Of a stretch of 64,000 nucleotides of DNA, positions 4,983 to 59,890 are shown in pieces. This DNA comes from an uncultured virus (IMG/VR IMGVR_UViG_3300048609_000040). Lineage: Duplodnaviria; Heunggongvirae; Uroviricota; Caudoviricetes. Position 1 is the first letter of the stretch. The number at the start of each line of letters is the position of its first letter. The position numbers and the translations under genes were made by a program. Location: IMG/VR virus record IMGVR_UViG_3300048609_000040; one strand, given 5' to 3'. The notes under the pieces were generated by a model. The model was not told the origin of the DNA and searched no databases. It saw only the letters and a list, made by a program, of their open reading frames with translations.

Positions 4983-4986
4983 CTTA

Positions 4987-5728: not shown

Positions 5729-5752
5729 TCTTCGACGTTAGCATGATTCTAA

Positions 5753-5875
5753 GCTCGGGTGGCGAAACTTGGTAGCCGCGCAGGTTTCAAGGTACCTGTG
5801 GACGAAACGTCCGTGAAGGTTCAAACGACGTAGCTACTCGCAGCTGCAGAAGCGAGACAAATCCTTTCCCGAGCA
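5753..5875 (+). tRNA. tRNA-Leu(CAA) with 36-nt T-loop insertion and 8-nt anticodon loop
   Basis: GCTCGGG/CCCGAGC; CAGGT-TTCAAGGT-ACCTG; GAAGG-TTCAAA[5826-5861]T-CCTTT. Confidence 0.75.
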
Positions 5876-5881
5876 CGAATA

Positions 5882-5955
5882 GCCAACTTAGCCCAATTGG
5901 CAGAGGCAACAGATTCAAACCCTGTTGAGTGAGGGTTCGACTCCCTCAGTTGGCA
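5882..5955 (+). tRNA. tRNA-Leu(CAA) with short variable loop
   Basis: GCCAACT/AGTTGGC, A73; loop TT-CAA-AC; 5-nt variable region. Confidence 0.85.
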
Positions 5956-5993
5956 CTAAATAGCGTAGAATACGCAGAAAGGAGCGTGCTGCT

Positions 5994-6533
5994 ATGGAAG
6001 CCGCGATTCATCTGAGAACTTTGATGTTGTCACAGGCATATGAACCAGTGAAGGTAATCTCGTGGCGCCGAGCCGTAACGCTTCTTTCCTTGGGGAAGGT
6101 CGAAATCGTCGAGGAACACGACTGTTTTGTACGGTCTCCGACGATCGTGATCAAAATACCGGCTGTGGTACGACTTCTGCGTGCGTTCAAGCGCTTTAGG
6201 AAACTGGTGAAATTCTCCAGGATCAATATCTACGCACGCGACAACTATACATGTCAGTACTGCGGAGCCAAGAAACGAATCGCGGACCTGACCTACGACC
6301 ACGTTACTCCTCGTAGTCAAGGCGGAAAAACCACGTGGACGAACATCGTTACTTCTTGCGCAATTTGCAATCGCCAAAAAGGTGGTAGAACGCCGGAACA
6401 GGCAGGTATGACATTACGTAAGAAGCCGGTCGTACCGAGCTGGGTGCCCGTTGTAACAATCAGTGTTAACGGGGACAACACACCGGATAGCTGGAGAGAT
6501 TACTTGTATTGGACGACAGAGCTACAGGAGTAG
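5994..6533 (+). CDS. HNH endonuclease (McrA-like)
   Basis: RDNYTCQYCG...TYDHVTPRSQGG...NIVTSCAICNRQKG; AAGGAG RBS. Confidence 0.93.
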   Translation: MEAAIHLRTLMLSQAYEPVKVISWRRAVTLLSLGKVEIVEEHDCFVRSPTIVIKIPAVVRLLRAFKRFRKLVKFSRINIYARDNYTCQYCGAKKRIADLTYDHVTPRSQGGKTTWTNIVTSCAICNRQKGGRTPEQAGMTLRKKPVVPSWVPVVTISVNGDNTPDSWRDYLYWTTELQE

Positions 6534-6538
6534 TTCTA

Positions 6539-6621
6539 GGAAGGTGAGGGCGGGATGGTCCTGCCGCCTGTCTTGAAAACAGGAAGGCCGAAAGGTCCGG
6601 GTTCGATACCTACACCTTCCG
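6539..6621 (+). tRNA. tRNA-Ser(TGA), 8/4 fold with 7-bp D stem
   Basis: GGAAGGTG/CACCTTCC, G73; D arm GGCGGGA-TGG-TCCTGCC; CCTGT-CT-TGA-AA-ACAGG; long variable arm. Confidence 0.85.
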
Positions 6622-6625
6622 CGAC

Positions 6626-6698
6626 GGTCTCATCGTTCAGCCAGGTAGGACGCTGCCCTGTCACGGCAGAAACACGAGTTCAAATCTCGTTGGGACCG
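6626..6698 (+). tRNA. tRNA-Asp(GTC)
   Basis: GGTCTCA/TGGGACC, G73; CTGCC-CT-GTC-AC-GGCAG. Confidence 0.96.
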
Positions 6699-6881
6699 CT
6701 ACACTGTTTCAATGATCCAGTCGTCAATCTCGTTGAGCAGTACACGCCAACTCGTGAATGTTGGATTCTCTTGTTGTGTGCGTGCACGTACGCGGTGTAC
6801 AAGCGTATCGAGCTGTTTCTCAGACAGACTGATACCTAATGCCACAGCTCGTTGCTTCAAATAGTTGTGTAAGTTGTACAC
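6699..6881 (-). CDS. small hypothetical protein
   Basis: 60-aa helical ORF exactly filling the inter-tRNA gap. Confidence 0.5.
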   Translation of the reverse strand: MYNLHNYLKQRAVALGISLSEKQLDTLVHRVRARTQQENPTFTSWRVLLNEIDDWIIETV

Positions 6882-6904
6882 CTCGACGTAAGTCTACTAC
6901 GTTT

Positions 6905-7065
6905 GCCACGGTAGCTCAAACGGGAGCATGTAGAGCCGATGAATCGGGCGCCAGTGTATTGGCACGAAGGCTCACGAGCGGAGGATACGAGGTTTGAGAC
7001 GAACGGCCGTGACTCTCACAACTTTGCCCTTGCGTATGCAGGTTCGAGTCCTGCCCGTGGCTCCA
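6905..7065 (+). ncRNA. tRNA-like RNA with the anticodon arm replaced by a ~110-nt structured domain
   Basis: Acceptor GCCACGG/CCGTGGC-T-CCA, D arm GCTC/GAGC and T arm GCAGG-TTCGAGT-CCTGC are intact; 6928-7037 holds several hairpins. Confidence 0.8.
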
Positions 7066-7068
7066 AAC

Positions 7069-7141
7069 GCCGCCGTAGCTCAGCTAGTAGAGCGCATCCT
7101 CGGTAAGGATGAGGTCGGAGGTGCAACGCCTCTCGGTGGCT
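7069..7141 (+). tRNA. tRNA-Thr(GGT)
   Basis: GCCGCCG/CGGTGGC; CATCC-TC-GGT-AA-GGATG; T loop TGCAACG. Confidence 0.93.
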
Positions 7142-7162
7142 CTGGTGTGCTAGAATCGTAGC

Positions 7163-7270
7163 ATGGTGATTTTTGCGTGGGGTATCTTCGTTCTGGTTGG
7201 AGTTTTGATTGTTCTTCGCCTCATAGCTGAGATTCCGTCAGTGCGTCAGTGGCTCGAAAAACGGAAATGA
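7163..7270 (+). CDS. 35-aa membrane peptide (not in the ORF track)
   Basis: MVIFAWGIFVLVGVLIVLRLIAEIPSVRQWLEKRK; TG-C-TAGAAT 6 nt upstream. Confidence 0.6.
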   Translation: MVIFAWGIFVLVGVLIVLRLIAEIPSVRQWLEKRK

Positions 7271-7274
7271 TAAT

Positions 7275-7345
7275 TCGGGTGTCGGCTAATGGTAGGCCGT
7301 CAGACTTTGGATCTGATTATGGAGGTTCAAGTCCTCCCGCCCGAG
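7275..7345 (+). tRNA. tRNA-Gln(TTG)
   Basis: TCGGGTG/CGCCCGA, G73; TCAGA-CT-TTG-GA-TCTGA. Confidence 0.95.
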
Positions 7346-7357
7346 CTGAGGTTTCTG

Positions 7358-7843
7358 ATGCGTCGTATTCTGTTTTTGGATTTTGATGGTGTGCTTAACA
7401 GTGTTGCGTTTGCTCAACGCACGACGTTTACCGGTTGGCCAGATGGCCACATCGACCCAGAAGCTATCAAACACCTGAATCGTCTCGTCGCTGAGACGTC
7501 TGCCAAGATCGTAATCTCATCATCGTGGCGGAAGATGCTCAACGACGAAGAGTTGGCAGGTGTGTTATCCCGTGCAGGCTGCGTAGGTGAGGTTGTCGGT
7601 AAGACACCGGACTTCTACCAAGTGCCGATATGGAATCGTTCGTCGCCGATCAATAGACGATTTGTTAGAGGTGATGAAATTCAAGCCTGGCTCGACGACC
7701 ATCCCGAAGTTGAGACGTTTGCGATCCTTGACGATGATGATGACATGGCGCACCTAAGCAACTGGCTTGTTCAAACAAGCCACGAGACAGGCCTTCAGGC
7801 TGAACATGTTGAACGTGCGTTGACGTTGCTACAGGATGGGTGA
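7358..7843 (+). CDS. HAD phosphatase, HAD_SAK_2 (RNA-repair-associated) family
   Basis: LFLDFDGVLN, IVISSSWR, RGDEIQAWL and FAILDD motifs. Confidence 0.88.
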   Translation: MRRILFLDFDGVLNSVAFAQRTTFTGWPDGHIDPEAIKHLNRLVAETSAKIVISSSWRKMLNDEELAGVLSRAGCVGEVVGKTPDFYQVPIWNRSSPINRRFVRGDEIQAWLDDHPEVETFAILDDDDDMAHLSNWLVQTSHETGLQAEHVERALTLLQDG

Positions 7844-7905
7844 TTACGATCGTGATTTATCAACGGGACTCATCAAGCCCGTTGATAAATCATGATTGCC
7901 GTTGA

Positions 7906-8226
7906 TTACGGACCGTGGGGCGCGTCTTTGAAGGCTTCCCAACCAGGGAATTTTTCGATGTGTACTCGTGACTTGCCCCATTTGGACACCCACGCCAATT
8001 TCTTGCGACAACTCATGCATCGCAACACCCAATCGGCGTGGTACCCCAAACAAACGCCTCGGCAGTCGTGCCACCAATATCCTTCATCGATCCATTGAGG
8101 ACGATGTGAAACGCCTTCCTTACCACGGCACCAGGTGCGGGTGTCCTTCCTACGCGACTTCCTAGTAGGCATCACAAGGCATTCAAGAGCGCCTCTCACA
8201 ATCTCCCTCTTGTTATATGTTTCCAA
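7906..8226 (-). CDS. hypothetical Cys/His-rich protein
   Basis: ORF directly downstream of the minus-strand HNH; WCRGK and CMSC motifs. Confidence 0.5.
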   Translation of the reverse strand: METYNKREIVRGALECLVMPTRKSRRKDTRTWCRGKEGVSHRPQWIDEGYWWHDCRGVCLGYHADWVLRCMSCRKKLAWVSKWGKSRVHIEKFPGWEAFKDAPHGP

Positions 8227-8759
8227 TTCTTTCCTCGTAATATATCCTTGAGTGTACCAACTTTTATCCCTGTTTGCAGGACGATGTCTTTTCTTGTTAT
8301 GCCCGCTTGACGTAATCGAATTGCCTTACGCACTTGCGTAGGAGACACCGTAGAATTTCCACGACCCTTAACGGCCATGTCATGCATGTTGGTTGCATGT
8401 GATCCAAGAAACATATGTGCGATCCTTACACACCGAGGGTTATCACATCGATGACATATTTCAAGTGCGGCGGGAATTGGACCTTTTTCTGCTGCCCACA
8501 CAAGACGGTGTACATACGCAATTTTACCTCTCTTACCGACGCCGATAACACCGTATCCCTTGTTGTTGACAGCTCCGGTCCAATTCCAACAAGTTTTTGT
8601 TTTTGTAACACGGGACCAGAGGCGCGGCATAAGCGGCAGGATTACACGAATTGGTTTAGGGGCTTCATTATTGATGTAGATGTGCCGATAATGCGACGCA
8701 CACCACCCACGTGCTAAAACCTTTCGACCACATTTCGGAAAACGACAAATCTTTGACAT
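8196..8759 (-). CDS. HNH homing endonuclease (HNH_3 type) with C-terminal HTH
   Basis: CWNWTGA...GYG...YVHRLVW...ICHRCDNPRCV; start at MSKIC. Confidence 0.92.
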   Translation of the reverse strand: MSKICRFPKCGRKVLARGWCASHYRHIYINNEAPKPIRVILPLMPRLWSRVTKTKTCWNWTGAVNNKGYGVIGVGKRGKIAYVHRLVWAAEKGPIPAALEICHRCDNPRCVRIAHMFLGSHATNMHDMAVKGRGNSTVSPTQVRKAIRLRQAGITRKDIVLQTGIKVGTLKDILRGKNWKHITRGRL

Positions 8760-8809
8760 CACCTTTTCATAACATGTTGGAACATTGAGTGCAAATCGTA
8801 GAAACAGTT

Positions 8810-8885
8810 GGCCCTGTAGCCAAGCTAGCAAAGGCAATGGTCCGCAAAACCATGATCCTCGGTGCGAATCCGAGCAGGGCCTCCA
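8810..8885 (+). tRNA. tRNA-Cys(GCA)
   Basis: GGCCCTG/CAGGGCC-T-CCA; ATGGT-CC-GCA-AA-ACCAT; T loop TGCGAAT. Confidence 0.94.
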
Positions 8886-8915
8886 AGGCTTCACGTGTGG
8901 TACACTCAGCATGTC

Positions 8916-9356
8916 ATGCGCAAACGAAAATCACTAGACGGAGGTGTTGAACAGTCCCCACCAACAGTTGCTGAAGCGGTCGAGGTTCTCGACACCGCTT
9001 ACAGTGAGCTAACCAAGGCGGCATCGAAAATCAAGCGACGTGAAGCTGCTGAGAAGGGCTGGTTGGCCGCGAGGTTACTAGCACAAGCTGTTTTGGCCTG
9101 CGCCAACGAAGATTGGCGGTCGCCTGAAGGGTTGGCGATGCGGCTTCGTCGAACAGAACTCAAACTGGACCCGCATTGTAGACCGTGGCTCGACGAGGCT
9201 ATACGTATAGGACGTGACAGCTTACACGGGCAGTGCTTCTACACAGGTGCTGAGGAAGCCTGTCAAACAAACGAAATCCGTGCAGGGCTTGATAAAGTCA
9301 AACTGGCAATACCACGCGCAAAACGTCTTTGCACAATCGGATCACGCAAGAAGTAG
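8916..9356 (+). CDS. PaREP1/HEPN-like helical protein
   Basis: EAAEKGWLAA and LHGQCFYTG resemble the PaREP1 A.EK.W.A and LH..FY.G motifs. Confidence 0.55.
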   Translation: MRKRKSLDGGVEQSPPTVAEAVEVLDTAYSELTKAASKIKRREAAEKGWLAARLLAQAVLACANEDWRSPEGLAMRLRRTELKLDPHCRPWLDEAIRIGRDSLHGQCFYTGAEEACQTNEIRAGLDKVKLAIPRAKRLCTIGSRKK

Positions 9357-9802
9357 ATCCTGTAGCTGTAGGAGGAAAGCTCGTGAATAAACAGAATCAA
9401 GATTGGGTTTGGGCGTATCACACGACAACCAAAGCTAATTTGGAATCTATTTGTCAGTACGGGTTATGTCCAACCTGGCACGAGCATGTTGAAGACGCAC
9501 CAGTCATCTTTGTAGAGCCCGACGTTGAGGGGTTGGAACCTTACGTCGATGCGGATAGTGTTGTGTTTCGTTTTAAAACACCTGGGTTTGGAACTACGGA
9601 AGATGGAGAAGCTGTAATCTACGGAGGGCCGGGCCGTTCTGGTCGTCCTGATCCTCCGTTTGTTGGTGACGTAGGAAGTGATGGTGTAATACCGCCAAGC
9701 AATCTTGAGATTTTATACAAGCGTCGTTGGGTTAATTTAGGCCGGTACTGTTAACACAACATTAACGTCTCGCTGGCAACACCACACACAAAACGTCTTT
9801 GC
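9303..9802 (+). repeat. 30-nt imperfect direct repeats (9303-9332, 9773-9802) flanking the ART-like gene
   Basis: CTGGCAATACCACGCGCAAAACGTCTTTGC vs CTGGCAACACCACACACAAAACGTCTTTGC (27/30 identical). Confidence 0.85.
9383..9754 (+). CDS. ADP-ribosyltransferase/Tpt1-like fold protein
   Basis: AYHTT...NLESI...GL.P...IFV pattern of the ART fold; GGAGG RBS before GTG. Confidence 0.55.
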   Translation: MNKQNQDWVWAYHTTTKANLESICQYGLCPTWHEHVEDAPVIFVEPDVEGLEPYVDADSVVFRFKTPGFGTTEDGEAVIYGGPGRSGRPDPPFVGDVGSDGVIPPSNLEILYKRRWVNLGRYC

Positions 9803-9805
9803 TTG

Positions 9806-9875
9806 GCCTCGCGGGCCGGATGCCCAGTTACGTCTTCTAAATGTGACGTGCTAAGTTCAACTCTTAGGCGAGGCG
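9806..9875 (+). tRNA. tRNA-Arg(TCT) with miniature D arm
   Basis: GCCTCGC/GCGAGGC; D arm GGGC-CGGAT-GCCC; loop CT-TCT-AA; CTAAG-TTCAACT-CTTAG. Confidence 0.82.
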
Positions 9876-9878
9876 CTT

Positions 9879-9950
9879 GATCCCGTGGCTGAACAGATTA
9901 GGCGCCGCTCCCCTAAAGCGGACTATACGGGTGCAAATCCTGTCGGGATC
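9879..9950 (+). tRNA. tRNA-Arg(CCT)-like with a 6-nt anticodon loop (CCCTAA)
   Basis: GATCCCG/CGGGATC; CCGCT-CCCTAA-AGCGG; Arg-type D loop; T loop TGCAAAT. Confidence 0.7.
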
Positions 9951-9959
9951 ACTTCTTAC

Positions 9960-10289
9960 TCAGCGGCCTTGTGGTGCCTGCGTACGTAGTCTGTGTCTTG
10001 GACAACTGTGTTGTAGGGCTTCCCATGCTCGATCACGCCCTACAAAATCTATGAAGGCTCTCGCAGCGCTGTCTGCGCTGCCATAGTCGTGTTGTTGCTG
10101 CTTAGTAATGAGCGCAAACCACTTTCTACCAACAGCTGTTCGGTACGGTCCTACAGAGACAAGTTGTTTGCCACCGTCAGCACGTGGCTTCACCTTGTGT
10201 ATCATCACCACGCAGCCTTCTTTAATGGCTTGGGCGATTTGATACTTGACTTGTCGAGGAGGTTGACGAGACCGTTGAAAAAAGCTCAT
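9960..10289 (-). CDS. hypothetical protein
   Basis: 109-aa ORF co-directional with the next gene. Confidence 0.55.
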   Translation of the reverse strand: MSFFQRSRQPPRQVKYQIAQAIKEGCVVMIHKVKPRADGGKQLVSVGPYRTAVGRKWFALITKQQQHDYGSADSAARAFIDFVGRDRAWEALQHSCPRHRLRTQAPQGR

Positions 10290-13438: not shown

Positions 13439-13603
13439 ATGAATAGGAACGACAGGCTAGTTGTGGTTCACTTGTTGCTCCGCGAGGAAGACGTAAAGAC
13501 AACGCGTCGCATCGCGAAGAAGCTTGGAACGGCCTATCAGGCACTGTTGCGGTGTTGGATCGCCGAAAAAGTAATCGAAGAATCGAAGCTGTCGATCACG
13601 TAA
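13439..13603 (+). CDS. CopG/ribbon-helix-helix-like small regulator (not in the ORF track)
   Basis: 54 aa, VHLLLREEDV...IAKKLGTAYQALLRCWIAEKV; TTGACA at 13402 upstream. Confidence 0.6.
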   Translation: MNRNDRLVVVHLLLREEDVKTTRRIAKKLGTAYQALLRCWIAEKVIEESKLSIT

Positions 13604-13620
13604 AACAGAGGACGATTAAG

Positions 13621-15513
13621 ATGCCAACACAAGAAAATCTCGGCCCTGCTGAACACATCATCGAGTCGCTGTTGACGTACAGTGGCCACTTGTACCATGG
13701 ACGTTGTGGTGTCGTATCATCCGATCAACGTTTCAGTATCGGAGTTCGGTGGGAGCCTGTCTCCTACAAAGTCGAAGACGGTCAAAAAGTCGTCTACAAG
13801 CTTGAGAAAGTTGGAAAGAAGTCTCGTCGTACTCGTATCGGTGTGCTTACCGAAGACAACAAGGTCATGAACGGCGGCCCTGTGCCGATCGCGGAGTATC
13901 GTCCTGCTGGACTGTTTCCCGAGGTTGCAGCGTGGTTCTACAAACAGGTTGCTGAGGTCTGGACACTAGACAACGAGTTCGCTGCTCGCTGGGCTAGTTA
14001 CGCCTTCGACCAAGAGCACCGTGACCTCAAAGTTGTGCTTGCTGCGTTCATGCTAGTTCAAGCACGCAAAGGGGCCGCTGTCCTAGACGCTGGCAAGATC
14101 GTCTTCCACGACGAGGACTACCGTGACGTCGGCGAAGCGATGATGCTGATCCGCCGCAAAGACGGCAAAGACCTGAATCCGAAGCTGCTGCTGCGTATCC
14201 ACGATGTCCTACGGTTGCCGGCAGTCGCTGCGATCAACCACGATCTTGGTTTTGGGTTGTCTGCGCGTCGTCCTTTCCTGGGACGGTGGCCGAAGACCGT
14301 CGAGAAGTGGTTGCGGCACCGCGAACAGAACCCGAGAATGCTCGACGGGCTCGTCAAGGCAGGCTTCCGCACGACCGTCATGGAGTTGGCGCGTAGAATC
14401 GGCTACAAGCCCGAGACGCCATACTTCTTTGAGGCGCTTCGCTGGAAACAATGTCAGGCCGAAGACGGTCGTCGTACGCTCGCGATCGGCGAGGCCGTCA
14501 AGGCCGCAGAATCTTGGGCAGGACTTAGCGAGATGCAGGTCTGCGAGAAGATCGTAGCCCAAAAACCGGACTGGAAGCGGATAGTGGGCCTTCTGCCTAA
14601 GGACGTCGGCGTAACGCGTGCCGTGGTCGCAGCGGCAATTGAAGCTGCGTGTCTTTCAGACAAAGACTTGATCATTCTAACGCCGACGCTCGAAGAGCTT
14701 GGGTTGCTTGACGTTCCAGATGTTCGTGGGCGGTGGGAACAGGCAGTCAAAGCCTCTGATGATATGCGTGCGGCCAACATCGCCCGCAACGTGCAAAGCA
14801 AACAGGTTGCTGAAAAGCTTCAAGAGGCAGCCGATATAGCTGTCCAGAAGGCAGTCGAGGAGGTCGTTCGTCAACTCCGTGTCTACTTCCTGGTCGACAT
14901 CTCTGGTTCGATGGCTGGATCGATTGATCGTGCGAAGGTCTGTATCGCCAAGTTCTTGCAGGCGTTCCCGCTCAACCAGCTTCACATCGCTGTGTTCAAC
15001 ACGGCGGCTCGTGAAATCGTTCTCAAGCACGCGTCAGCAGCAGGTGTAGAGAACGCTTTTCGCGGCATTCAAGCCAGTGGTGGAACCGACTATGGCGCAG
15101 GCGTAAGGGCGCTTTCAATACATCGTCCAAAAGAAGACGAAGACGCCTTGTTCATCTTTGTGGGCGACGAAGAAGCAGCGTCGTTCACAACCGCGGTGCA
15201 GGCGTCTGGGCTTCGTCCTTTGGCGTTTGGGTTCTTGAAAACTGTAGCGGCAGATGGTGCAGCAGGCTGGCGGGTACGCCAGTACGGTCCTGATCGTAAC
15301 AAGGCCGTTCGTGAAACCGCTACGCAGCTTGGCATTCCGTGCTGCATGCTCGACGAAGCAATGTTTGATGATCCATACGCGATCCCGAGGACATTACAGA
15401 TTTTGATTGCCGCAACGCCTGTTGGTGTTACACAAAACGTACGTACACCGCGTGTAACGTTAATCGATCGAATCTTGAAGACACCGTTATTGCCTAAGCC
15501 CGCATGGGCTTAG
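13621..15513 (+). CDS. vWA-domain protein with a long helical N-terminal region (TROVE/Ro60-like architecture)
   Basis: MIDAS motifs DISGS, GGTD and VGDE in the C-terminal third; helical N-terminus; GAGGA RBS. Confidence 0.8.
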   Translation: MPTQENLGPAEHIIESLLTYSGHLYHGRCGVVSSDQRFSIGVRWEPVSYKVEDGQKVVYKLEKVGKKSRRTRIGVLTEDNKVMNGGPVPIAEYRPAGLFPEVAAWFYKQVAEVWTLDNEFAARWASYAFDQEHRDLKVVLAAFMLVQARKGAAVLDAGKIVFHDEDYRDVGEAMMLIRRKDGKDLNPKLLLRIHDVLRLPAVAAINHDLGFGLSARRPFLGRWPKTVEKWLRHREQNPRMLDGLVKAGFRTTVMELARRIGYKPETPYFFEALRWKQCQAEDGRRTLAIGEAVKAAESWAGLSEMQVCEKIVAQKPDWKRIVGLLPKDVGVTRAVVAAAIEAACLSDKDLIILTPTLEELGLLDVPDVRGRWEQAVKASDDMRAANIARNVQSKQVAEKLQEAADIAVQKAVEEVVRQLRVYFLVDISGSMAGSIDRAKVCIAKFLQAFPLNQLHIAVFNTAAREIVLKHASAAGVENAFRGIQASGGTDYGAGVRALSIHRPKEDEDALFIFVGDEEAASFTTAVQASGLRPLAFGFLKTVAADGAAGWRVRQYGPDRNKAVRETATQLGIPCCMLDEAMFDDPYAIPRTLQILIAATPVGVTQNVRTPRVTLIDRILKTPLLPKPAWA

Positions 15514-25840: not shown

Positions 25841-25960
25841 GAGGTCTGCAAGAAGTGCTAACAAGCTAATCGCCCAACGGTAGGGCATCAGTCTACGGAA
25901 CTGACCAATGCGGGTTCAAGTCCTGCTTAGCACTCCAACTCAGCGCTTCAACTCGACCTC
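25841..25960 (+). ncRNA. scaffolded tRNA-Arg(ACG)-like RNA
   Basis: D, anticodon (TCAGT-CT-ACG-GA-ACTGA) and T arms plus TCCA, enclosed by GAGGTC/GACCTC and GAAGTGCT/AGCGCTTC. Confidence 0.85.
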
Positions 25961-34969: not shown

Positions 34970-35821
34970 CTAGTCATGTTGTATGTTGAATGTCTTGATG
35001 GCGTCGATCAAGTGTAGTGATTTGATAACACTTGCTACGTCACAGCCTTTTTCATCACTTACAACACGCCGGTAAACCTCTTTGTGCAGGTTAGACATTT
35101 TGTCTGACACGTCGAGTGAAACCGGCCCAACAGTAAACCGGCGGTGCACAGCTGCTGGATCGTCGACGATCGCCAACCGCCACGTAACGCGGGCGTGCTC
35201 GGTCTTAAAGACACCGTGAGCTTCGTGCGAAGCAACCTCTGCGGCTTCGATGTCGACGACATTTCCGGTCAGGTAGACAGCAAGGTCGAAAAGGTGAATC
35301 CCAATATTGACTAGGATCCCGCCTGACAACTTTGACTGACCTTTCCAGGACTCGTCGTACCACGGTCCGCGACACACTACATAATCGATGTCTAAAGTAG
35401 TACAATGTCCATCGATGGCCGTACGGAGCGTTGCTACTTCAGGGTGATAACGAAGCTGTACGACTGGGTAAACACGCCCAGCGTATTGTTGTATGTCAGT
35501 GATGAATCGACTGCCAGATTCGTGACTGAGTGCTAATGGCTTCTCGATGACGACGTTCTTACCGTTTTTCAGTGCCGTAATGGCTTGGCCAACGTGCTGC
35601 CAGCTTGGAGTGCACAGTACGACAGTGTCAATCTCGTGGATGTGGTCTTGCCAAAAGACCTCATCGCGTGTTGTAAACATGCAGCGTGGAGCGTAACGAT
35701 CTAACTGGCCTACAGAATCGCTCAAATCACACGCAGCGACGATTTGGCCGCCAACAGCTGTGATTGCTTCCATGTGTTTTCTAGCTACGTAGCCACCAAC
35801 TCCTAAAATACCAAAGCGCAT
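34970..35821 (-). CDS. Gfo/Idh/MocA oxidoreductase (WbpB/WlbA-like nucleotide-sugar dehydrogenase)
   Basis: GVGGYVA, EKP and RGPWYDESWKG...SGGILVNIGIHLFD motifs. Confidence 0.88.
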   Translation of the reverse strand: MRFGILGVGGYVARKHMEAITAVGGQIVAACDLSDSVGQLDRYAPRCMFTTRDEVFWQDHIHEIDTVVLCTPSWQHVGQAITALKNGKNVVIEKPLALSHESGSRFITDIQQYAGRVYPVVQLRYHPEVATLRTAIDGHCTTLDIDYVVCRGPWYDESWKGQSKLSGGILVNIGIHLFDLAVYLTGNVVDIEAAEVASHEAHGVFKTEHARVTWRLAIVDDPAAVHRRFTVGPVSLDVSDKMSNLHKEVYRRVVSDEKGCDVASVIKSLHLIDAIKTFNIQHD

Positions 35822-35881
35822 CCACGTAGCATCGCGCTTTTGCCGTTATACTTCAAGTAATTGGACTGATCGCTGTTGTGA

Positions 35882-36643
35882 TCACGCCTTCGGGCGGTAC
35901 GGCTCTTCGGGATTGTGGTTCTTCAGGTCCAGAATTTTGTGTCCAAGTTCGGTACCGAACCAGTCAATCAAGACGCGCGGATCAAAGTGCTCAACGTTGT
36001 TCTCGAATTGAAGCGGTGAACTCAACGTTTGATGGAGCTTAATGCCTAGATGCTTGAGATCGGTGTGGCGCATACAAGTGAAACGATCCTTATGCGTCAC
36101 AGTTTTGAGATGTTGTGTAGCACTGTAATCGAGGCTGTTTGACAGTTCTCTATCCCAAAGTTGCCAGTCGAGTTTGGAGAGCAACTCACGACTGTAGCAT
36201 CTGCCGCTACCAATCGGCTCGCCTTCGCGTGGCCCCTTGTAGCCAGGCCAATGAACCAGTGTCCAGTAGTGTGGATTGAACTGGTAGTGATCGTAGATTC
36301 CTGTGTAGTCTATTCCGTCGCGTAGTGCCTGGACCCATTGCACGAAGAGTGCATCATTGGCCATGTTGTCGCTACCCAAGGTCATGACTGCATCAGGATC
36401 CAGTGTTCGAGCACAGGTTAGGCCATACTGCCACTTGTTTCCTAGCGGCTCATTCGGAAACTCCACATAAGCGGCGCCGCAAGACTCTGCCAATTCGCGG
36501 CTTCGGCTACCTTCTGAACCGATTGTCAGAGGAATCAAATTTACTGTGTCGACGAGTCTGTGCCGCTGCTCTACCAAATGCTCCAACACAACTTTCACGG
36601 TGGGGAACCGTCCCCAAAACGCTGTGATGACAACTATTTTCAT
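35882..36643 (-). CDS. GT-A fold glycosyltransferase-like protein
   Basis: VVITAFWGR, PNEPLGNKW and LGSDN motifs. Confidence 0.7.
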   Translation of the reverse strand: MKIVVITAFWGRFPTVKVVLEHLVEQRHRLVDTVNLIPLTIGSEGSRSRELAESCGAAYVEFPNEPLGNKWQYGLTCARTLDPDAVMTLGSDNMANDALFVQWVQALRDGIDYTGIYDHYQFNPHYWTLVHWPGYKGPREGEPIGSGRCYSRELLSKLDWQLWDRELSNSLDYSATQHLKTVTHKDRFTCMRHTDLKHLGIKLHQTLSSPLQFENNVEHFDPRVLIDWFGTELGHKILDLKNHNPEEPYRPKA

Positions 36644-37269
36644 GGGTGCAACGTCCAGCTAGGATCGAGGCTGCCGGTTAGAAACAGCTCTTGAGCTTTT
36701 CTAGCCTTGTTGTAGACGCGTTCCACTTTCAATGATGTTGTCAGACCCAACGTCTTAATCTCCTTCTCCAACTGTGTTTGTGACGTATAGGTGTCGTAAC
36801 AACCATCGTCTCGTCGTTTGGGGTTGTGCATTGGCTCGTCGGTTACATAGCTGATGTCCATACCGATAGCACGGCCACAACGGAATGCCGCTAGTACCAT
36901 CGGCAACCAATGGGCCTGATGGCATAGAACTGCTTGGCTGATGACCAATTCTGCAGGTACTATTTGACCTGCAGCAAGCATATCCATGAAGTTTCCTTGA
37001 ACGGCGTGTACATTGGGGTGACTGTTGTCGAACGTTATTGGACCGTTTGAGATGTCGATGCCGAGATAATTCTTCCCGTTCCAACCTCGTTTGACTAGCT
37101 CTTTGCAAAAGTGTCCATAGCCACAACCGATCTCAATGATCGTTGACGCCTTTAGACAGGCTGTCAACAGCCGTTCGGTTATCTTCTCACCTTCCCGCGT
37201 CTTCCACATCCAATCCCAAAACGTGGTTGGTTGTTTCTGCCAAACTTCGCCGTATTCGCCCATCTTCAC
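36640..37269 (-). CDS. class I SAM methyltransferase
   Basis: IIEIGCGYG and YLGIDIS motifs. Confidence 0.85.
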   Translation of the reverse strand: MKMGEYGEVWQKQPTTFWDWMWKTREGEKITERLLTACLKASTIIEIGCGYGHFCKELVKRGWNGKNYLGIDISNGPITFDNSHPNVHAVQGNFMDMLAAGQIVPAELVISQAVLCHQAHWLPMVLAAFRCGRAIGMDISYVTDEPMHNPKRRDDGCYDTYTSQTQLEKEIKTLGLTTSLKVERVYNKARKAQELFLTGSLDPSWTLHP

Positions 37270-37874
37270 TTCTCCAGTTCGCCGACCAACAACACTGGTT
37301 GATAGACACCTGCTGTGATTTGCGTGGCCGCCATGTTTAAACCAGGAAACAGTTTCTGATACCGCTCCAACGGTCTCCGTGTTGAGTGTCCTAGGCGAGA
37401 CTTATGAGGTGGTCCTACAGCATCACACACGATCATGTAGCTTCCTGCCCTCAACACGCGTCTGATGTCCTTGCATAAGGCTTCGACGATTGCATCAGGG
37501 ACGTGCTGTATGACGGCATAGATGAACAACCCGTCAAACCTTTCGTTTTTGAAGGGGAGTGTGCAACTGGGAGCGACATGCTGCACGAGATTTTTGCTCA
37601 TTTCGCACATCGTACGAGAGCTGTCGACAGCTGTAACACGATGTGTTTTTAGTAGACGTTGTGTGAAGCGTCCCCAACCAGCACCGAAATCAAGTACCTC
37701 TCCTCGATAATGTTGCGTGAGCGATTGGAGTACTTTCCACGCAGCTTCGGTGTCTACATGAAACTCTTGATTGGAGCTGTCTAGGTGTCCTACAGCCTGT
37801 AGGCCACGAGTAGCGGCTCTGTCGTTCCAATATTCCTCACCCAATTCATATTTTTCGATCACCACAATTTCCAC
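37266..37874 (-). CDS. class I SAM methyltransferase
   Basis: VLDFGAGWG, LPFKNERFD and RVLRAG motifs. Confidence 0.88.
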   Translation of the reverse strand: MEIVVIEKYELGEEYWNDRAATRGLQAVGHLDSSNQEFHVDTEAAWKVLQSLTQHYRGEVLDFGAGWGRFTQRLLKTHRVTAVDSSRTMCEMSKNLVQHVAPSCTLPFKNERFDGLFIYAVIQHVPDAIVEALCKDIRRVLRAGSYMIVCDAVGPPHKSRLGHSTRRPLERYQKLFPGLNMAATQITAGVYQPVLLVGELEK

Positions 37875-38545
37875 TCCTTCACACGACTCAACGCTCGTAT
37901 CTGTGGTTTATCGCTGTCGCGTGTCATACGAGCCCAGATGGTATCGGCGGGCTGTGGTCGTGCCTCTTTTAGCCACTTTTCCTCATGTGGAATGGAGAGT
38001 AGAGAAACTTGTTGGTACTGCGCCTGCAAGGCAAACCATACATCAGCCATAAAACCGTTTTCAAAATGTTTCCAACTGAGTTGTATAGTAGATGAGTGAA
38101 AGGCAAGTGTTCCAGTTCCTAGCTGGTGTTCTTTACGGACATCTTGTACGGCAGGCCCCAAACACCGTCGTACGTCACGATCGGATCGATAGTTACGGGG
38201 TGGGCTACAACGAAACCTAGCAGCATGCACTCCAACAGCCGCCTTTGGAGTGGCTTTCAGATAATGAAGCAGTTGGGCGATGTAGTCATGAGGATAAATG
38301 ATGTCATCGTCGCAAGTGAACAAGTAACCTGTTGCCCCTTGACAGGCCAGTGTGAATTTAGACGCGTCTCCTCTATCTACGACACGGCTTACGTGTACAC
38401 CAGCCGGTGGTGACCATGAAAACTCCTTGTCGCCGTTGATACATATGTGCAGTTCGTCTACTTGCGGCAAGAGGGATTGTACGGCTTGTCCGATTACTTG
38501 TTCCCTACCCGGAAATGTCGCAATACACGCAAGTCGTTTACACAT
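37859..38545 (-). CDS. glycosyltransferase family 2-like
   Basis: IATFPGR, TCDDDIIYP and GTG motifs. Confidence 0.8.
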   Translation of the reverse strand: MCKRLACIATFPGREQVIGQAVQSLLPQVDELHICINGDKEFSWSPPAGVHVSRVVDRGDASKFTLACQGATGYLFTCDDDIIYPHDYIAQLLHYLKATPKAAVGVHAARFRCSPPRNYRSDRDVRRCLGPAVQDVRKEHQLGTGTLAFHSSTIQLSWKHFENGFMADVWFALQAQYQQVSLLSIPHEEKWLKEARPQPADTIWARMTRDSDKPQIRALSRVKEWKLW

Positions 38546-39236
38546 CGATCCACCGCACTGTCGTGAATGGGTACTTAGCTCTGCCGATCGGATTCATCAT
38601 AGACACAACACCAAGATGCAGTGTAAGAGACTGCCACGAGCGGAACATCCGTAATGCTTGTTCGTGCAACCGCCGCGTTGCCTGACTCCACACACCAGAT
38701 CCCATTGGGACACCAGCAGAGAGAGTGTCCCAACGAGTCAGAATCGGGTGTATTTTCCAGTCTAGCTTCTCGAAGAAAGCCCTCTCCGCATAGAAGCACC
38801 CGTCAATCCACCAAGTCTCTTCTACGAGCGTGTTGTAGCGTACAGGCAGTCTACAAGTCCAATTGGCCTGTCCCGCTCGATGATCCACAAATAGGTTCAG
38901 AGCTATTTTGTCATTGGGGAGTGTTTGCCACCGCTCTTCACACCGATCCAAAAAGTCCTTACACAGTTTCATGTCGTCAGGCAGAAAGACGTATCTATCG
39001 TAAACAGGACGTACACGAAGCTCCTCGAAAATGTGGTTGATCCACTGCCAAAACAGTTTCTTGCCGTGGTTGATTGAGGCTACGTGGTGCTCAACAACAG
39101 GTGCGAGATTGTTTGTTGTGTCTGGATCGTCATCGAATACGACGATGTCTATATTCATGTATCCTGTGAGCTGCTTTAGTAGCTGTTGAAGCAGCTCGGG
39201 TCGTTTGTATGTAAGTACGACGACTAAGGTCTTCAT
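38538..39236 (-). CDS. glycosyltransferase family 2-like
   Basis: VLTYKRP, VFDD and FLPDD motifs. Confidence 0.78.
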   Translation of the reverse strand: MKTLVVVLTYKRPELLQQLLKQLTGYMNIDIVVFDDDPDTTNNLAPVVEHHVASINHGKKLFWQWINHIFEELRVRPVYDRYVFLPDDMKLCKDFLDRCEERWQTLPNDKIALNLFVDHRAGQANWTCRLPVRYNTLVEETWWIDGCFYAERAFFEKLDWKIHPILTRWDTLSAGVPMGSGVWSQATRRLHEQALRMFRSWQSLTLHLGVVSMMNPIGRAKYPFTTVRWIDV

Positions 39237-39889
39237 GTCGGCAGCCAAAGATGTGTTGGCGTAGCGCAGTAACATCCTGCATGTTGGTATCCCGCCTTCA
39301 CCAGGATGCTTTCTTGGTCAGCTGTCTCTTTGGGTGTTTGTGCCTCTACGATTACGACAGGTCTGTCACGTGTCAGCAACTGCTGTGCTCCCAGTAGGGC
39401 TGGTACCTCAAAGCCCTCGATGTCCATCTTCAAGACGGCAACTTTCACACCAGCAGTAAGTTGGTCAAGGGAGAACAGGGGAATGTCGCCAGTTGAGGCC
39501 TCTGCGTAACGGTTCATGCCTGAGTTGTTCGGAGTCTCAGAGATGAGTTGTGCGTGGTTCGCAGATCGACCGATTGCGCAGCGGAATGGGAACACGTTCT
39601 TGATGTTGTTGGTTGCTAGATTGGCCACAAGGCACTGGAAGGTGTTACCAGCGGGCTCAAAGGCCCAAACCTCAGTCGCGTCACAGAAACACGAGAAGTA
39701 CACAGAGTGGTTACCGACGTGTGCGCCAGCGTCCAGATACAGACCTTGTAGGTGTAGGTCACGAACACGTTGCAAAAGTGGTGTCTCATAGAAAACACCT
39801 GCAGCGTGACTTTTGGCGATGTGGTCGTTCTCTAGCGGGTGGTGGAAGCTGAAGGTGTGCCCTTCATACTGAAAGGTTTTTTCTTGCAC
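39233..39889 (-). CDS. FkbM family methyltransferase
   Basis: LDAGAHVGNHS, AFEP and KMDIEGFE motifs. Confidence 0.92.
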   Translation of the reverse strand: MQEKTFQYEGHTFSFHHPLENDHIAKSHAAGVFYETPLLQRVRDLHLQGLYLDAGAHVGNHSVYFSCFCDATEVWAFEPAGNTFQCLVANLATNNIKNVFPFRCAIGRSANHAQLISETPNNSGMNRYAEASTGDIPLFSLDQLTAGVKVAVLKMDIEGFEVPALLGAQQLLTRDRPVVIVEAQTPKETADQESILVKAGYQHAGCYCATPTHLWLPT

Positions 39890-39924
39890 GCTTCAACGTA
39901 ACACAAACCGGTTGTAGCTTCAAA

Positions 39925-40600
39925 TTACAGCTCGTAATCACCCTTCCGGTAGCGTTCATACGAGAAACGGGTCTGGGTTGGGTGATGCGTTACGACGCCT
40001 CGCTGCATTGCGACGGTCCAGGTCTTGTCAGACCGTTCTCCGGTCCCGACCTGTGCCTTACGGTCACGAGCACGTTCAGTAGCAACTCTTTGTTGTTTCT
40101 GCTCCCACAGCTTGGCCCGCAAAAGGGATAATGCTGATTGGCGATTTTGATGTTGTGACCGTTCTGATTCCACACGGACGATCAATCCAGTCGGCTTGTG
40201 TTTGATTTGTACCGCGCTGTCTGTGACATTCCTATGCTGCCCACCTGCACCTGAACCACGAGTGGTTGTCCATTCTAGGTCTCGATCGTCGAGATGAAAC
40301 TCGACCTCGGTTGGCTCGGGAAGCACAGCAACGGTTACTGTGCTGCTGTGGACACGGCCGTGTTTTTCAGTTTCGGGGATGCGTTGGAAGCGGTGGCCGC
40401 CTGGTTCGTCTTTGAAGGATTGCCAAGCTTGATCACCGACTACTCGGAAGGCAATGAACCCAGGACGCTCTTCGAGAAGCTCGACGCTAAAGACCCCTCC
40501 GTGAGGCACGTCGCGTGTAGATAACGGCCTGTTCTCGAACAAGTCCTTTGGCGTCTAAGCCGCCTTCCCCACCGCGAATTTCGACAATGCATGTACGCAT
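39925..40600 (-). CDS. truncated RF1-like peptide chain release factor, expressed via +1 frameshift
   Basis: Frame 0 (40600-40487) MRTCIVEIRGGEGG...Y.RRASRRGL*; +1 frame has HRFQRIPETEKHGRVHSS (PxT) and GAGGQHRN; ~224 aa when joined. Confidence 0.88.
40486..40500 (-). promoter_or_regulatory. prfB-type +1 programmed frameshift signal with UAG
   Basis: GGAGG-GGT-CTT-TAG-C: internal SD, 3-nt spacer, slippery CUU-U, stop codon. Confidence 0.85.
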
Positions 40601-53674: not shown

Positions 53675-54790
53675 ATGTCCAACAAGAACCTGATTCCGGT
53701 ATTGAATTACCGACAAACAGCAGCTGCCGTAGCTTGCTGCATTCGTGCTCGACGGACCGCGTTGTTGGTTGGTGCTCCGGGTGTTGGTAAAACTATGTGC
53801 GTCCGTGATGCGGCAGCTGCAGTAGGGCTACCCTGCTACGATCTCATCGCGTCGAATATGGATCCGACAGACATTGCCGGCCTGCCCTATCGTGACGCCC
53901 GCACGGGTCATGTATGTCGCGAGTTGTTTCCCGAGATCCGTGCAGTGGTAGAAGAAGCGGCGGTCCTGTTCCTCGACGAGGCAACCACGATGCCAAAGTC
54001 CGTCGAAGGGCCGTTGCTTCGTCTCGCGTTGGAGCGCAACGCAGGCGGGGCGCCGTTGCATCCTGGCAGCTCTGTGATTATGGCGTGCAACCCGCCTGAC
54101 CAAGCACCAGGCGGTATCGAACTGTCTGCGGCAATGATCAACCGTGTGGTGGTTCTTCGATACGCGCCTGACCTGGCCGAGATCATCAGCTATTTCAACG
54201 GTGAACCTGTTCAAGCTATGCCGAATGTTCTCGATGAAGACGAGTTCCAGAAGGCGTGCAAGACAGAGTTTTCGGACTTCGCGGCGACGGTGTCACACGT
54301 CACCGATTTGGTCACCTACGATCCGCCTCCTGCATCCATCGACCAGGGCGAGCCATGGGCCTCTCCTCGTGCGTGGGAGATCGGCCTTTCGTGTCTTGCC
54401 GCTAATGGTGGTGTCGAAGACGACGTTGGTGCTGCGCTGCTCGCCGGAGCGGTCGGTCCTCTTTCGGCCGACGCCTACCTGGCCATCCGCAAGCTACGGG
54501 CCAAACTGCCCTCCATCGAACAGATTCGAGGGAATCCAGTCAAGGCAACCGTGCCAGCCGAGATGGACTATCAAATCGCGGCGTTGGGTGTGCTCGCACG
54601 TGTAGCACAAACAGATGTGTGGGCTGCTTGGATCTACGCAGAGCGGCTACTACCCGACATTGGTGCTGCCGCAGGTAGTTTTCTACAGCACAAACACGTG
54701 CCGTCATACAGCAAATGGGCTGTACTTGGGCAAAAAGCACAGGTCGCCTTGCTGGAAGCTGTCCACATCCGAACGTCCATCGCATGGTAG
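53675..54790 (+). CDS. MoxR-like AAA+ ATPase
   Basis: Walker A GAPGVGKT, Walker B LFLDE, ACN sensor, SPRAW. Confidence 0.92.
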   Translation: MSNKNLIPVLNYRQTAAAVACCIRARRTALLVGAPGVGKTMCVRDAAAAVGLPCYDLIASNMDPTDIAGLPYRDARTGHVCRELFPEIRAVVEEAAVLFLDEATTMPKSVEGPLLRLALERNAGGAPLHPGSSVIMACNPPDQAPGGIELSAAMINRVVVLRYAPDLAEIISYFNGEPVQAMPNVLDEDEFQKACKTEFSDFAATVSHVTDLVTYDPPPASIDQGEPWASPRAWEIGLSCLAANGGVEDDVGAALLAGAVGPLSADAYLAIRKLRAKLPSIEQIRGNPVKATVPAEMDYQIAALGVLARVAQTDVWAAWIYAERLLPDIGAAAGSFLQHKHVPSYSKWAVLGQKAQVALLEAVHIRTSIAW

Positions 54791-56004
54791 CAACACTGAA
54801 AACTACTTCGCAGTTGATCACGCGGGCTCGAAGTTGCTTTCAAACTTTGGCCTGGCAGCATCCGTTTTTCGGCCTGCCGGCCGCTCGTGTGTGTATTCGT
54901 GTCGCTTCCGTCGTGGGAACCACCGTTGTAAACACAGCAGCTGTCGACGATCGCGGTACTGTGTACCTGAACCCTGTGTTTTGTTGGAAACTTACAAAGC
55001 CAGAGTTTATGTTCGTCCTGGCGCATGAAATCATGCATCTGTTGTTGTTTCATTTTGCTCGGCAGCAGGGTCGCAAGGAGAAACGTTGGAATCGCGCTAC
55101 AGATCGCGCGATCAATTTTGGGTTAGTACATATCGGTCTTTCCCGACCTGCAGTGGGATTGATGCCTCTTGATCAATCACACAACGGGTTTACTTCTGAA
55201 CAACTATACGAAGTCGAACCCGAGATCGAAAACGATGCTGGAGGCACAGCGCTACCACATGTAACAGGCGGATGTGGTGTAATCCCAGCGCCGATAGCTG
55301 GCCCGCCTGGAGAAGGTGAAACACCTACGCCGCGAAGCGCAAGTGAAGTCCGTCGTAACTGGCGTGAAACGGCAAACGCTGCAGTTCGTGCTGCTATGAG
55401 CGCCGGTGATCAGGCTGGTGATACGCTTGGAAACGTTCTGCAAACGCCGCCAAGTCGCGTGAAGTGGTCACATGTCCTTCGGAGTGCTTTCTCTCGTGCA
55501 CTTTCTGCACACGGTTGCGACGACGTAAGCTACACACGACGACACCGTCGCAGTTTCGACAGCATGTTCATTCTGCCAGGCGGAATCACATACAAAGCGT
55601 TAGTCGCTGTTATCGTAGACACATCTGGATCGGTAAGTGATGAGTCTCTTGCACAAGCTGTCAGTGAGGTTGAAGCGATTGCCAAGCAGCAATCTGTAGC
55701 AATCTTCTTGGTCACACATGACGCGATAGTGCAGCATGCGAAGTGGTTACTACCTGGCGTGTCACGGACGGTGATAGCAAAGACCATGATTGGGCGTGGC
55801 GGAACGTTGTATACACCCGCGTATCAAGCGGTCGAAAAAGCTGCTAAGAGATTTGATCATGTCGTGCATCTGACCGATGGAATGCCTTGTGAAGCCTGGC
55901 CCGCACGGCCAAAAAACTGCCGCTGCCTCGTAGTCGCGTTGATTGGTTGCAAGCAAGCCAACGCGGTACCCATCAACGCCCGTGTGGTCGAGGCCGAAAT
56001 ATAG
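54784..56004 (+). CDS. metallopeptidase-vWA (DUF2201-like) partner of the AAA+ ATPase
   Basis: HEIMH zincin motif; VDTSGS, GGT and LTDG MIDAS. Confidence 0.9.
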   Translation: MVATLKTTSQLITRARSCFQTLAWQHPFFGLPAARVCIRVASVVGTTVVNTAAVDDRGTVYLNPVFCWKLTKPEFMFVLAHEIMHLLLFHFARQQGRKEKRWNRATDRAINFGLVHIGLSRPAVGLMPLDQSHNGFTSEQLYEVEPEIENDAGGTALPHVTGGCGVIPAPIAGPPGEGETPTPRSASEVRRNWRETANAAVRAAMSAGDQAGDTLGNVLQTPPSRVKWSHVLRSAFSRALSAHGCDDVSYTRRHRRSFDSMFILPGGITYKALVAVIVDTSGSVSDESLAQAVSEVEAIAKQQSVAIFLVTHDAIVQHAKWLLPGVSRTVIAKTMIGRGGTLYTPAYQAVEKAAKRFDHVVHLTDGMPCEAWPARPKNCRCLVVALIGCKQANAVPINARVVEAEI

Positions 56005-58727: not shown

Positions 58728-58946
58728 GTGAGAACTACCATACAAGCGTTCGCGGATGCGTTAGGCGCTGATTACGCCACTACTAGCAGCCTTCTTCGAT
58801 CGTTGGCTACACTCAAACTCGTACAAGCTGTTGGTGTCGACAAGAAGGACTGCAAGGGAAAGGGCAAGCTCGTCTATGAGATCGACGTGGGTGTAGGCGC
58901 TCAGCTTGATTGGTTGTTCGCTGCTGCATTAGACAAGCTGGCATGA
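58728..58946 (+). CDS. small winged-helix-like protein
   Basis: TIQAFADALG...GKGKLVYEI. Confidence 0.5.
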   Translation: MRTTIQAFADALGADYATTSSLLRSLATLKLVQAVGVDKKDCKGKGKLVYEIDVGVGAQLDWLFAAALDKLA

Positions 58947-59890
58947 CTAGAAAGGCAGAGATCAAGCTGCTAGACGGGAGGTACGTCGTCTTCGACGATG
59001 ACGTACCGATGCGAGAACGGTGGGCCGCCCTGGCACGGTTGAATCTAAGGCACGCAGATTTCCTTGAAGGTGACTACACTGGCTTCGATCTGACAGGTCT
59101 CGATCTGTCCTATGCCAATCTTCGTGGTTGTTGTTTTATGGAAGCCGACCTGTCTGGTGCTGTACTCGAACACGTAGACGCATACGGTACGGTTTTCACC
59201 TCCGCCAGGATGCGCGGTGCAAAGCTCAATTTTGCTGTGTTGGAAAAGGCGGTCTTCAGTGCTGCTACACTAGAAAACGCGTCATTGCACATGTGCTGTG
59301 GTCCGCAAGCAGTTTTTGATCGTGCGGTTTTGCACGGCGCGCACATGAATGAAGCAAACTTTGCTGGTGGACACTTTCTTGACGCGCAGATGACTGATGC
59401 TGACTTGTCAAAGTGTGACTTCACTGAAGCTGTATTGGACGGGGCCACGCTTAACAACACAAAACTAGTTGCAGCAAAGTTCGTTGGTGCGTCTCTCCGT
59501 AACGTGCTTTTGCACAAAGCTACAATCTCTGAGACGTCCTTCGCCAACGCCGATCTTTCCTTTGCAGATTTTCAGGGGTTGATCGCGCGGAGTCAGAAAA
59601 ACGACTTTACCGGTATGCGATTAAGAGGCGCCAAGAACATAGCCAACGACCTCTATTCGTTTGGCTACCTACAAGACTTGGCGCCGTTAGTACGACGTTA
59701 CGAAGCATACTATGACAAGGACGCTCTAGCTTATGACGTCCAACAGGTGCTTGCACGGCTGTGGTTTGAGCGTTCTATCTCAGGTACAGATGTATTACTA
59801 GAACCTGTTGAATCACTTATTGCGGCGGCGAAAGCACTAGCAGTGACGTTAAGTATTGAGGAGTCCAAGAAGAGGGGATCGAAATGGTAG
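58943..59890 (+). CDS. pentapeptide repeat protein
   Basis: Long A(D/N)L/F-xx repeat run. Confidence 0.92.
   Translation: MTRKAEIKLLDGRYVVFDDDVPMRERWAALARLNLRHADFLEGDYTGFDLTGLDLSYANLRGCCFMEADLSGAVLEHVDAYGTVFTSARMRGAKLNFAVLEKAVFSAATLENASLHMCCGPQAVFDRAVLHGAHMNEANFAGGHFLDAQMTDADLSKCDFTEAVLDGATLNNTKLVAAKFVGASLRNVLLHKATISETSFANADLSFADFQGLIARSQKNDFTGMRLRGAKNIANDLYSFGYLQDLAPLVRRYEAYYDKDALAYDVQQVLARLWFERSISGTDVLLEPVESLIAAAKALAVTLSIEESKKRGSKW

Follow-up and report, generated by a model that had tools for sequence, protein, structure and literature searches.

A putative prfB-type +1 frameshift site in a family of short, phage-borne RF1-like release factor genes

Introduction

Why would a phage write the gene for a release factor in two reading frames, with a stop codon at the point where the first one ends? 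The question is raised by a locus in a stretch of 64,000 nucleotides, hereafter called the window, which is part of a ~145-kb phage-like contig (145,149 bases); both the phage and its host are uncultured. Frameshifting by +1 at a CUU-stop sequence is the textbook property of one gene, prfB. UAA codons are read by both RF1 and RF2, UAG codons by RF1-type factors and UGA codons by RF2. The initial annotation of the locus described an RF1-like gene with a prfB-style site in which the stop is UAG. It proposed that the circuit of prfB had been rebuilt with its stop codon matched to the specificity of RF1, the viral factor being made only when UAG termination fails. Here, we describe the gene and its slip site, their conservation among relatives and the explanations that can be given for the interruption.

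Results

Organization of the gene and of its slip site

All the features of the gene lie on the minus strand. ORF1 (40487..40600, frame 0) runs from an ATG at 40600-40598 through 37 codons to a TAG stop at 40489-40487. Its translation, MRTCIVEIRGGEGGLDAKGLVREQAVIYTRRASRRGL, corresponds to the start of release factor domain 2 and includes the segment EIRGGEGGLDA (40582-40550), whose aligned counterpart in RF1 is EIRPGTGGEEA. In RF1, the helix tip within that counterpart presumably reads the first base of the stop codon. Near the end of ORF1, an internal SD-like GGAGG (40496..40500) stands 3 nt 5′ of the slip codon, the spacer being GGT (40495-40493). The slip site itself, CTT TAG C (40486..40492), is composed of the leucine codon CTT that would occupy the P site (40492-40490), the TAG and a C at 40486.

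ORF2 (39925..40488) lies in the +1 frame. It begins with AGC at 40488-40486, reads SVELLEERPG... and extends over 187 codons to a TAA at 39927-39925, encoding the rest of domain 2, domain 3 with its GGQ, and domain 4. A P-E-T tripeptide (40369..40377) occupies the position of the RF1 PxT motif, presumably the ‘anticodon’ tripeptide of RF1, and is aligned to the PVT of Thermotoga and Thermus RF1. The G-G-Q (40237..40245), the peptidyl-tRNA hydrolysis motif, is invariant in the alignment of the relatives (alignment A1). The 37-codon frame, the succession GGAGG-GGT-CTT-TAG-C and the +1 continuation SVELLEER... with PET and GGQ are thus all found as first annotated. The joined product had been expected at ~224 residues; when the slip site is translated as one four-base step, the protein obtained (P0001) is 224 aa long and is colinear with RF1 domains 2-4 over the junction.

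The 14-base string GGAGGNNNCTTTAG has its one copy in the 64-kb window at the slip site, and none of 100 dinucleotide shuffles contains it. Beyond the GGAGG and the slip site, the +1 frame offers no ATG, GTG or TTG within reach. The RNA fold at the slip site is not significant (z +1.41) and the site has no Rfam match, as is expected of a prfB-type site. A reading of TAG as a sense codon was ruled out at this site, since it does not restore the release factor frame. A second CTT-T is present within ORF2. The assembly contig of the probable source run has no indel across the slip site at depth 18, an agreement that does not count as independent support. In the other runs, the contigs do not extend over the slip site. 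The database gene call for the contig of the window is just 133 aa long.

An RF1-like factor that lacks domain 1

In Pfam, the matches of P0001 are to the C-terminal half of PCRF (profile positions 100-194 of 194) and to the RF-1 domain over its full length. Its highest score among the NCBIfam models is that with prfA (216 bits), which leads prfB (143 bits) by 72 bits and is followed at a greater distance by prfH (80 bits); this ranking agrees with the RF1-like identity assigned at the outset. Because the protein covers model positions ~104-325 only, these scores lie below all three model cut-offs: the RF1 equivalog models TIGR00019 and NF001859 give 215.5 and 215.8 bits for cut-offs of 423 and 400, and the PrfH model TIGR03072 gives 79.8 bits for a cut-off of 166.65. 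Among solved structures, the top matches are all RF1 (E 8e-48 to ~1e-37), and in the alignment to Thermotoga RF1 residues 88-307 (E 8e-48) the junction between the two frames is crossed without a gap. Codon 37 of P0001 aligns to RF1 residue ~140. Over domains 2-4, identity to RF1 is ~45%, and the PxT itself, its flanking Q and HSST, and the GGQ all align to RF1. The Glu of the RF1 GG-x-E segment is replaced by Asp in the P0001 family. As the top matches are all RF1 and the alignment over the junction is gapless, we classify P0001 as RF1-type, restricted to domains 2-4. Judged by these alignments, the gene product is a short class-I release factor of the RF1 type made up of domains 2, 3 and 4, with PxT and GGQ, and the predicted ORF1 peptide is an integral part of domain 2 and not a disposable leader.

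The absence of domain 1 noted in the initial annotation is borne out: the protein begins at about RF1 residue 104, its relatives begin at the same point, and no upstream ORF in the window resembles RF domain 1. On the strength of this absence, the initial annotation also proposed that the protein may be a backup or rescue factor against host translation shut-off, a role that stays hypothetical. The likeness to PrfH (RFH) suggested on this basis holds only in part. The phage factor is also short and without domain 1, but it scores below the PrfH cut-off, it retains PxT and it has no RtcB partner adjacent to it in the window; among 81 loci, no flanking family is common to more than 10.

Conservation of the slip site among relatives

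A protein search of the databases gave 119 relatives besides the gene’s own 133-aa call. Coverage of P0001 is at least 93% in 32 of them and 72-89% in 87, which correspond to the part after the break. In 74 of the 119, the called ORF carries at its N-terminal end an out-of-frame signature, xF[DESN], often as GG-x-F-D/E/S/N.

At the DNA level, 96 loci were compared, namely a set of 83 (the window, 80 viral loci and two metagenomic ones) and 13 further contigs. The viral loci are the best 80 of 335 IMG/VR stretches and lie mostly on 50-600 kb contigs. Conservation of the arrangement SD-NNN-CTT-stop had been named as a check on the annotation, and the site is indeed kept: a slippery codon with a stop at the same codon and a +1 frame open over ~185 codons was found in 77 of the 96 loci, including the window’s own. 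The slippery codon is CTT in 76 of them and TTT in one. These counts include near-duplicate contigs, and six pairs are identical in ORF2, so that the independent number of sites is somewhat below 77.

Within the set of 83, a +1 shift is needed between the EIRxxEGG motif of ORF1 and the frame of the GGQ in 68 loci, 67 of which have CTT followed by a stop; L038, a shift-requiring locus, looks degenerate. The position of the site is nearly constant: counted from the first residue of EIRxxEGG, it lies exactly 31 codons on in 66 of the 67 CTT-stop loci, and in L072 it is four codons nearer the motif. The +1 frame remains open for 182-193 codons in the relatives. The other members of the set are 10 uninterrupted genes (seven plus L028, L031 and L060), three with an in-frame stop at the same codon, one with an in-frame stop elsewhere, and L066, an ordinary full-length RF1. 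The 13 further contigs comprise ten that share this site, with CTT in nine and TTT TAG C in the tenth, an open one and two that are unclassifiable. The TTT TAG C locus, L367, is preceded by cggaggtca.

The surroundings of the slippery codon are also shared. An exact GGAGG at 3-nt spacing precedes it in 35 of the 68 frameshifted loci, at least four of five SD-like bases at 2-3-nt spacing are found in 52, and the SD-like element is weaker in 16. Next to the stop, on its 3′ side, stands C in 53 of these loci, G in 13 and A in two; all 16 TAG sites have C. At the slip position of in-frame members, the codon is TTA, TTT, CTC, TGG or GTC, and never CTT, in nine of 11, L031 and L354 being left out.

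A tblastn search of 50,697 phage records matched 97 of them. LR745208.1, an unannotated 485-kb record of an uncultured phage, has the short frameshifted form, with a 37-codon ORF1 ending in cggaggggt CTT TGA C. The other rows among the matches listed are mostly uninterrupted, with 33-46% identity and many on contigs of a few kb. In scans of genome and metagenome contigs, nearly all the matches listed are canonical bacterial RF1 (39-47% identity), and the members of the P0001 family among them are L162 and L163.

Since ORF1 is conserved in frame 0 and ORF2 in the +1 frame, both parts appear to be under selection. Since the homologs conserve a prfB-style cassette, no other reading accounts for the site nearly as well as a programmed +1 frameshift. 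Homologs that are in frame at this position, which would have pointed to an indel or to recent pseudogenisation, form a minority only (11 of the 96 DNA loci and 32 of the 119 database proteins). The 11 uninterrupted loci suggest that the gate is dispensable.

Stop-codon identity, decoding motif and phylogeny

The stop at the 77 frameshift sites is TGA in 56, TAG in 18 and TAA in three. In a tree of ORF2 from 79 family members and nine bacterial RF1 sequences, the P0001 family forms a clade of its own with respect to the nine RF1 (SH-aLRT 100). The base of the family tree is occupied by the uninterrupted L073, L079 and L080, and the frameshifted state fills a clade of 75 rows. On this tree, TAG arose several times from TGA neighbours. 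Parsimony gives 13 changes for the TAG state, well-supported branches force at least four, and the stop differs even between tightly paired relatives (L042/L050 versus L024 and L039/L040; L163 versus L062; L029 versus L047). The closest relatives of the window gene are L074, which also has TAG, and L038.

There is no covariation between the stop and the decoding tripeptide. Among the 14 TAG-type genes, the tripeptide is PxT (8), SPT (2), PPN (2) or SPL (1), the loop being absent from one; among the 44 TGA-type genes, it is PxT (28), PxN (14), SPT (1) or PPH (1). SPF is found in none of the family members examined, and no alignment column is tied to TAG versus TGA after correction (best p 0.0011 in 1,161 tests). 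Stop identity is thus independent of the tripeptide, an outcome that speaks against the rule of a stop matched to its factor. The same rule is contradicted by the predominance of TGA and by the repeated switching among close relatives. In the window’s own phage, which combines a UAG sensor with a PET factor, direct self-feedback is possible.

The PxT loop is absent in L008, L042, L050, L248 and P0115 (e.g. HRWQEKSGGRMQTS and HRVQRTSNGRIHSS), and other members have SPT or SPL at this position (L029, L049, L056, L059 and L045/L046). SPT resembles a mix of the RF1 (PxT) and RF2 (SPF) motifs. Codon reading may possibly be altered or relaxed in the members that are loop-less or have SPT or SPL.

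In-frame stops, tRNA genes and genomic surroundings

At the slip codon, three relatives carry a stop that is in frame with the downstream part: L004 in G001 (TAT TAG A), L007 in G002 (CTA TGA C) and L008 in G003 (CTC TGA C). These genes would need readthrough and not a frameshift. In G001, the tRNA array that houses the release factor gene also includes a tRNA whose anticodon is CTA; G002 has a tRNA(TTA), and G003 has a tRNA(CTA) and a tmRNA; of the three, only G001 has a suppressor that matches its own in-frame stop. In G001 (L242, ~14405-15064) and in G002 (L257, ~9435-10100), the short release factor gene is part of the tRNA array, where it is flanked by tRNA-Glu(ttc) and tRNA-Glu(ctc).

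In the window, the release factor gene is ~30 kb away from the tRNA array. The window has 24 tRNA genes, 23 in a 10-kb array (151-9952) and one tRNA-Arg (25863-25937), and none of the 24 is a suppressor. The array includes a tRNA-Leu(tag), which can read CUN codons. Crude counts of ORF coverage and of split ORFs under other codes gave no clear sign of recoding in the window and were non-discriminating for the window and for G001-G003.

The release factor gene comes first in a series of minus-strand genes, the others being of methyltransferase, glycosyltransferase and oxidoreductase type. Directly downstream of it (34970-39889, minus strand) are encoded an FkbM-type methyltransferase, a weak GT2 match, two class-I methyltransferases and a GFO/IDH/MocA oxidoreductase, a run that looks like a sugar-modification cluster. 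The upstream neighbour of the release factor gene has no family match. Apart from an endolysin-like glucosaminidase, few phage families are recognisable in the window. Positions 53675-56004 encode an AAA (MoxR-like) ATPase and, after it, a DUF2201 metallopeptidase/VWA protein, and there are a further VWA protein (13552-15513) and a pentapeptide-repeat protein (58910-59890). A 54-kb contig from a groundwater run of another study (X2) matches positions 39600-40023 with 7 differences and diverges inside the release factor gene, which suggests a recombination boundary within or beside the gene.

Discussion

In this study, we describe an RF1-like gene of a phage that is divided between two frames at a site resembling that of prfB. 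We consider it probable that a prfB-type programmed +1 frameshift gates the phage factor by termination efficiency. The mechanism that we propose is borrowed from prfB because the elements of the slip site are those of prfB: an internal SD-like sequence, a 3-nt spacer, a P-site CUU and a stop with C after it, all ordered and spaced alike, in a gene whose product is also a class-I release factor. The two systems differ in that the phage gene family is RF1-like, lacks domain 1 and is carried by phages. They differ also in the position of the site, at codon 37 and the start of domain 2 in the phage gene and, as we take it, near codon 26 and within domain 1 in prfB. Finally, the phage family uses all three stops.

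From the sequence comparisons, we infer the slip, its sensitivity to release factors and the codon specificity of the factor. The ribosome would halt with its A site over UAG and its P site occupied by tRNA-Leu paired with CUU. The upstream GGAGG would pair with 16S rRNA and hold the ribosome, the very short spacing stimulating the shift. Termination at UAG-C would be slow, the tRNA-Leu would re-pair on UUU, and reading would resume in the +1 frame. The yield of full-length protein would thus go down when termination at the sensor stop is efficient and up when it is slow. At the UAG sensor of the window, host RF1, and plausibly the phage factor too, would repress output in a direct negative feedback. 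To say that only a failure of UAG termination lets the factor be made is to go beyond what can be deduced. The UGA sensor of most relatives would be read by host RF2, and output would go up when RF2 is scarce. Speculatively, the loop could then be closed indirectly, an RF1-type helper taking over UAA termination. As most sensors are UGA, read by host RF2, the logic of the family is not strict self-matching and is best read as that of a gauge of termination capacity. In a crude set of 95 window ORFs, the stops are TGA in 38, TAA in 30 and TAG in 27, from which 60% of the phage’s stops would need RF1-type activity.

Other explanations of the interruption have to be weighed against a programmed, termination-sensitive frameshift. 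The gain of one T within a short stretch of Ts is a frequent type of sequencing error, and the gene’s own database call has 133 aa. Nonetheless, a sequencing or assembly error, or a recent pseudogene, is hardly credible: in the 76 other loci, drawn from numerous samples, this codon is likewise a stop, the flanking elements are shared and both frames are intact, and so recurrent a site excludes such an origin. At depth 18, the sequence of the window is reproduced in the contig of the probable source run, and the public record LR745208.1 argues against an artefact of a single pipeline. We give just as little weight to the proposal that the locus makes two products, a 37-aa peptide and a 187-aa protein re-initiated at the internal GGAGG. 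While this GGAGG could serve as a ribosome-binding site, no start codon in the +1 frame follows the slip site, the constancy of CTT would be left unexplained, and the ORF1 segment aligns to an integral part of RF1 domain 2.

It is also conceivable, though rather unlikely, that the site is a rescued indel or fixed attenuator, in which constitutive slippage at a one-base insertion gives a low and roughly constant output and senses nothing. The basal in-frame members have GGT TTT GAG and GGA TTT GAA, and a single C inserted into the former gives GGT CTT TGA G, which may equally be how a programmed site originated. The stop has drifted among TGA, TAG and TAA while the protein shows no corresponding change, which also favours an attenuator of this kind. 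Yet the site has been kept over a deep clade (~50% amino-acid identity) together with an SD-like element and, next to the stop, a C or G that makes for a weak context, and few lineages have undergone the one-base deletion that would restore the frame. Furthermore, the same elements in prfB tie the shift to the release-factor level, according to the accessible text of PMC12421855 and PMC5009743. A different doubt concerns what the gate reports. It might respond to host factors only, the phage protein being inactive on its own sensor, even in UAG-type genes, perhaps because it is slow, rescue-specialised or altered in specificity. This possibility, which we regard as real if somewhat doubtful, would fit the UGA sensor of 56 of the 77 sites, the members that lack the PxT loop (the five named above) or have PxN or SPT, and the Asp that stands for Glu in the GG-x-E segment of the family. 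In the window protein, however, the PxT, its flanking Q and HSST, and the GGQ align to RF1 and give no hint that UAG reading has been lost.

Canonical RF1 (PrfA) is the best match of the phage factor over domains 2-4, where PxT and GGQ are present; the phage factor differs from it by the loss of the ~100-residue domain 1, by a score of 216 bits for cut-offs of 400-423 and by its own clade. In the accessible text of a survey of 8,164 genomes, there is no prfB motif with TAG and no programmed frameshift in prfA (PMC12421855, 2025). The release factor gene of giant viruses (Mimivirus/Megavirus) is described, in the part of the source that is accessible, as expressed via readthrough and frameshift (PMC3521657; cited in PMC5009743). 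It is likewise a virus-borne class-I release factor gene that needs recoding, but its product is a eukaryote/archaeal-type eRF1 of amoeba viruses, whereas the factor described here is of the bacterial RF1 type, belongs to phages and has a prfB-like cassette. A preprint on recoded phages (10.1101/2021.08.26.457843) reports full-length phage RF1 and RF2 genes, which are likewise phage-encoded and thought to tune termination during infection; its accessible text lacks the word ‘frameshift’ and mentions no loss of domain 1 for these factors. Phage RF1 and RF2 are mentioned in the huge-phage paper PMC7162821, whose accessible release-factor passages are without frameshift. In the text at hand, PMC6514570 and PMC7824862 do not contain ‘frameshift’, nor PMC6514570 ‘phage’, and PMC3711429 lists only prfB. 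Supplements aside (e.g. Table S2 of the preprint and those of the huge-phage paper), we found no description of a frameshifted phage RF1-like gene in the literature.

More tentatively, codon 37 might be viewed as an evolvable termination sensor, one that lineages would retune among UGA, UAG and UAA +1 sites and that in a few phages would be a readthrough stop, as in G001, where the array includes an amber-suppressor tRNA. If true, it would link the control of phage termination capacity to phage suppressor tRNAs. It would also provide the RF1-type, in-frame-stop counterpart of prfB regulation, a counterpart that a 2016 review, in its accessible part, called unknown.

The finding bears on annotation, as gene callers split or truncate such genes: the window’s own call has 133 aa and 87 of the 119 database relatives have 72-89% coverage. 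Altogether, the conserved site would represent a prfB-type device in a large phage RF1-like family, at another position and with all three stops. The family thereby offers a natural set of variants that bears on how the identity of the sensor codon sets the controlling release factor, and also on why phages bring their own terminator devoid of domain 1.
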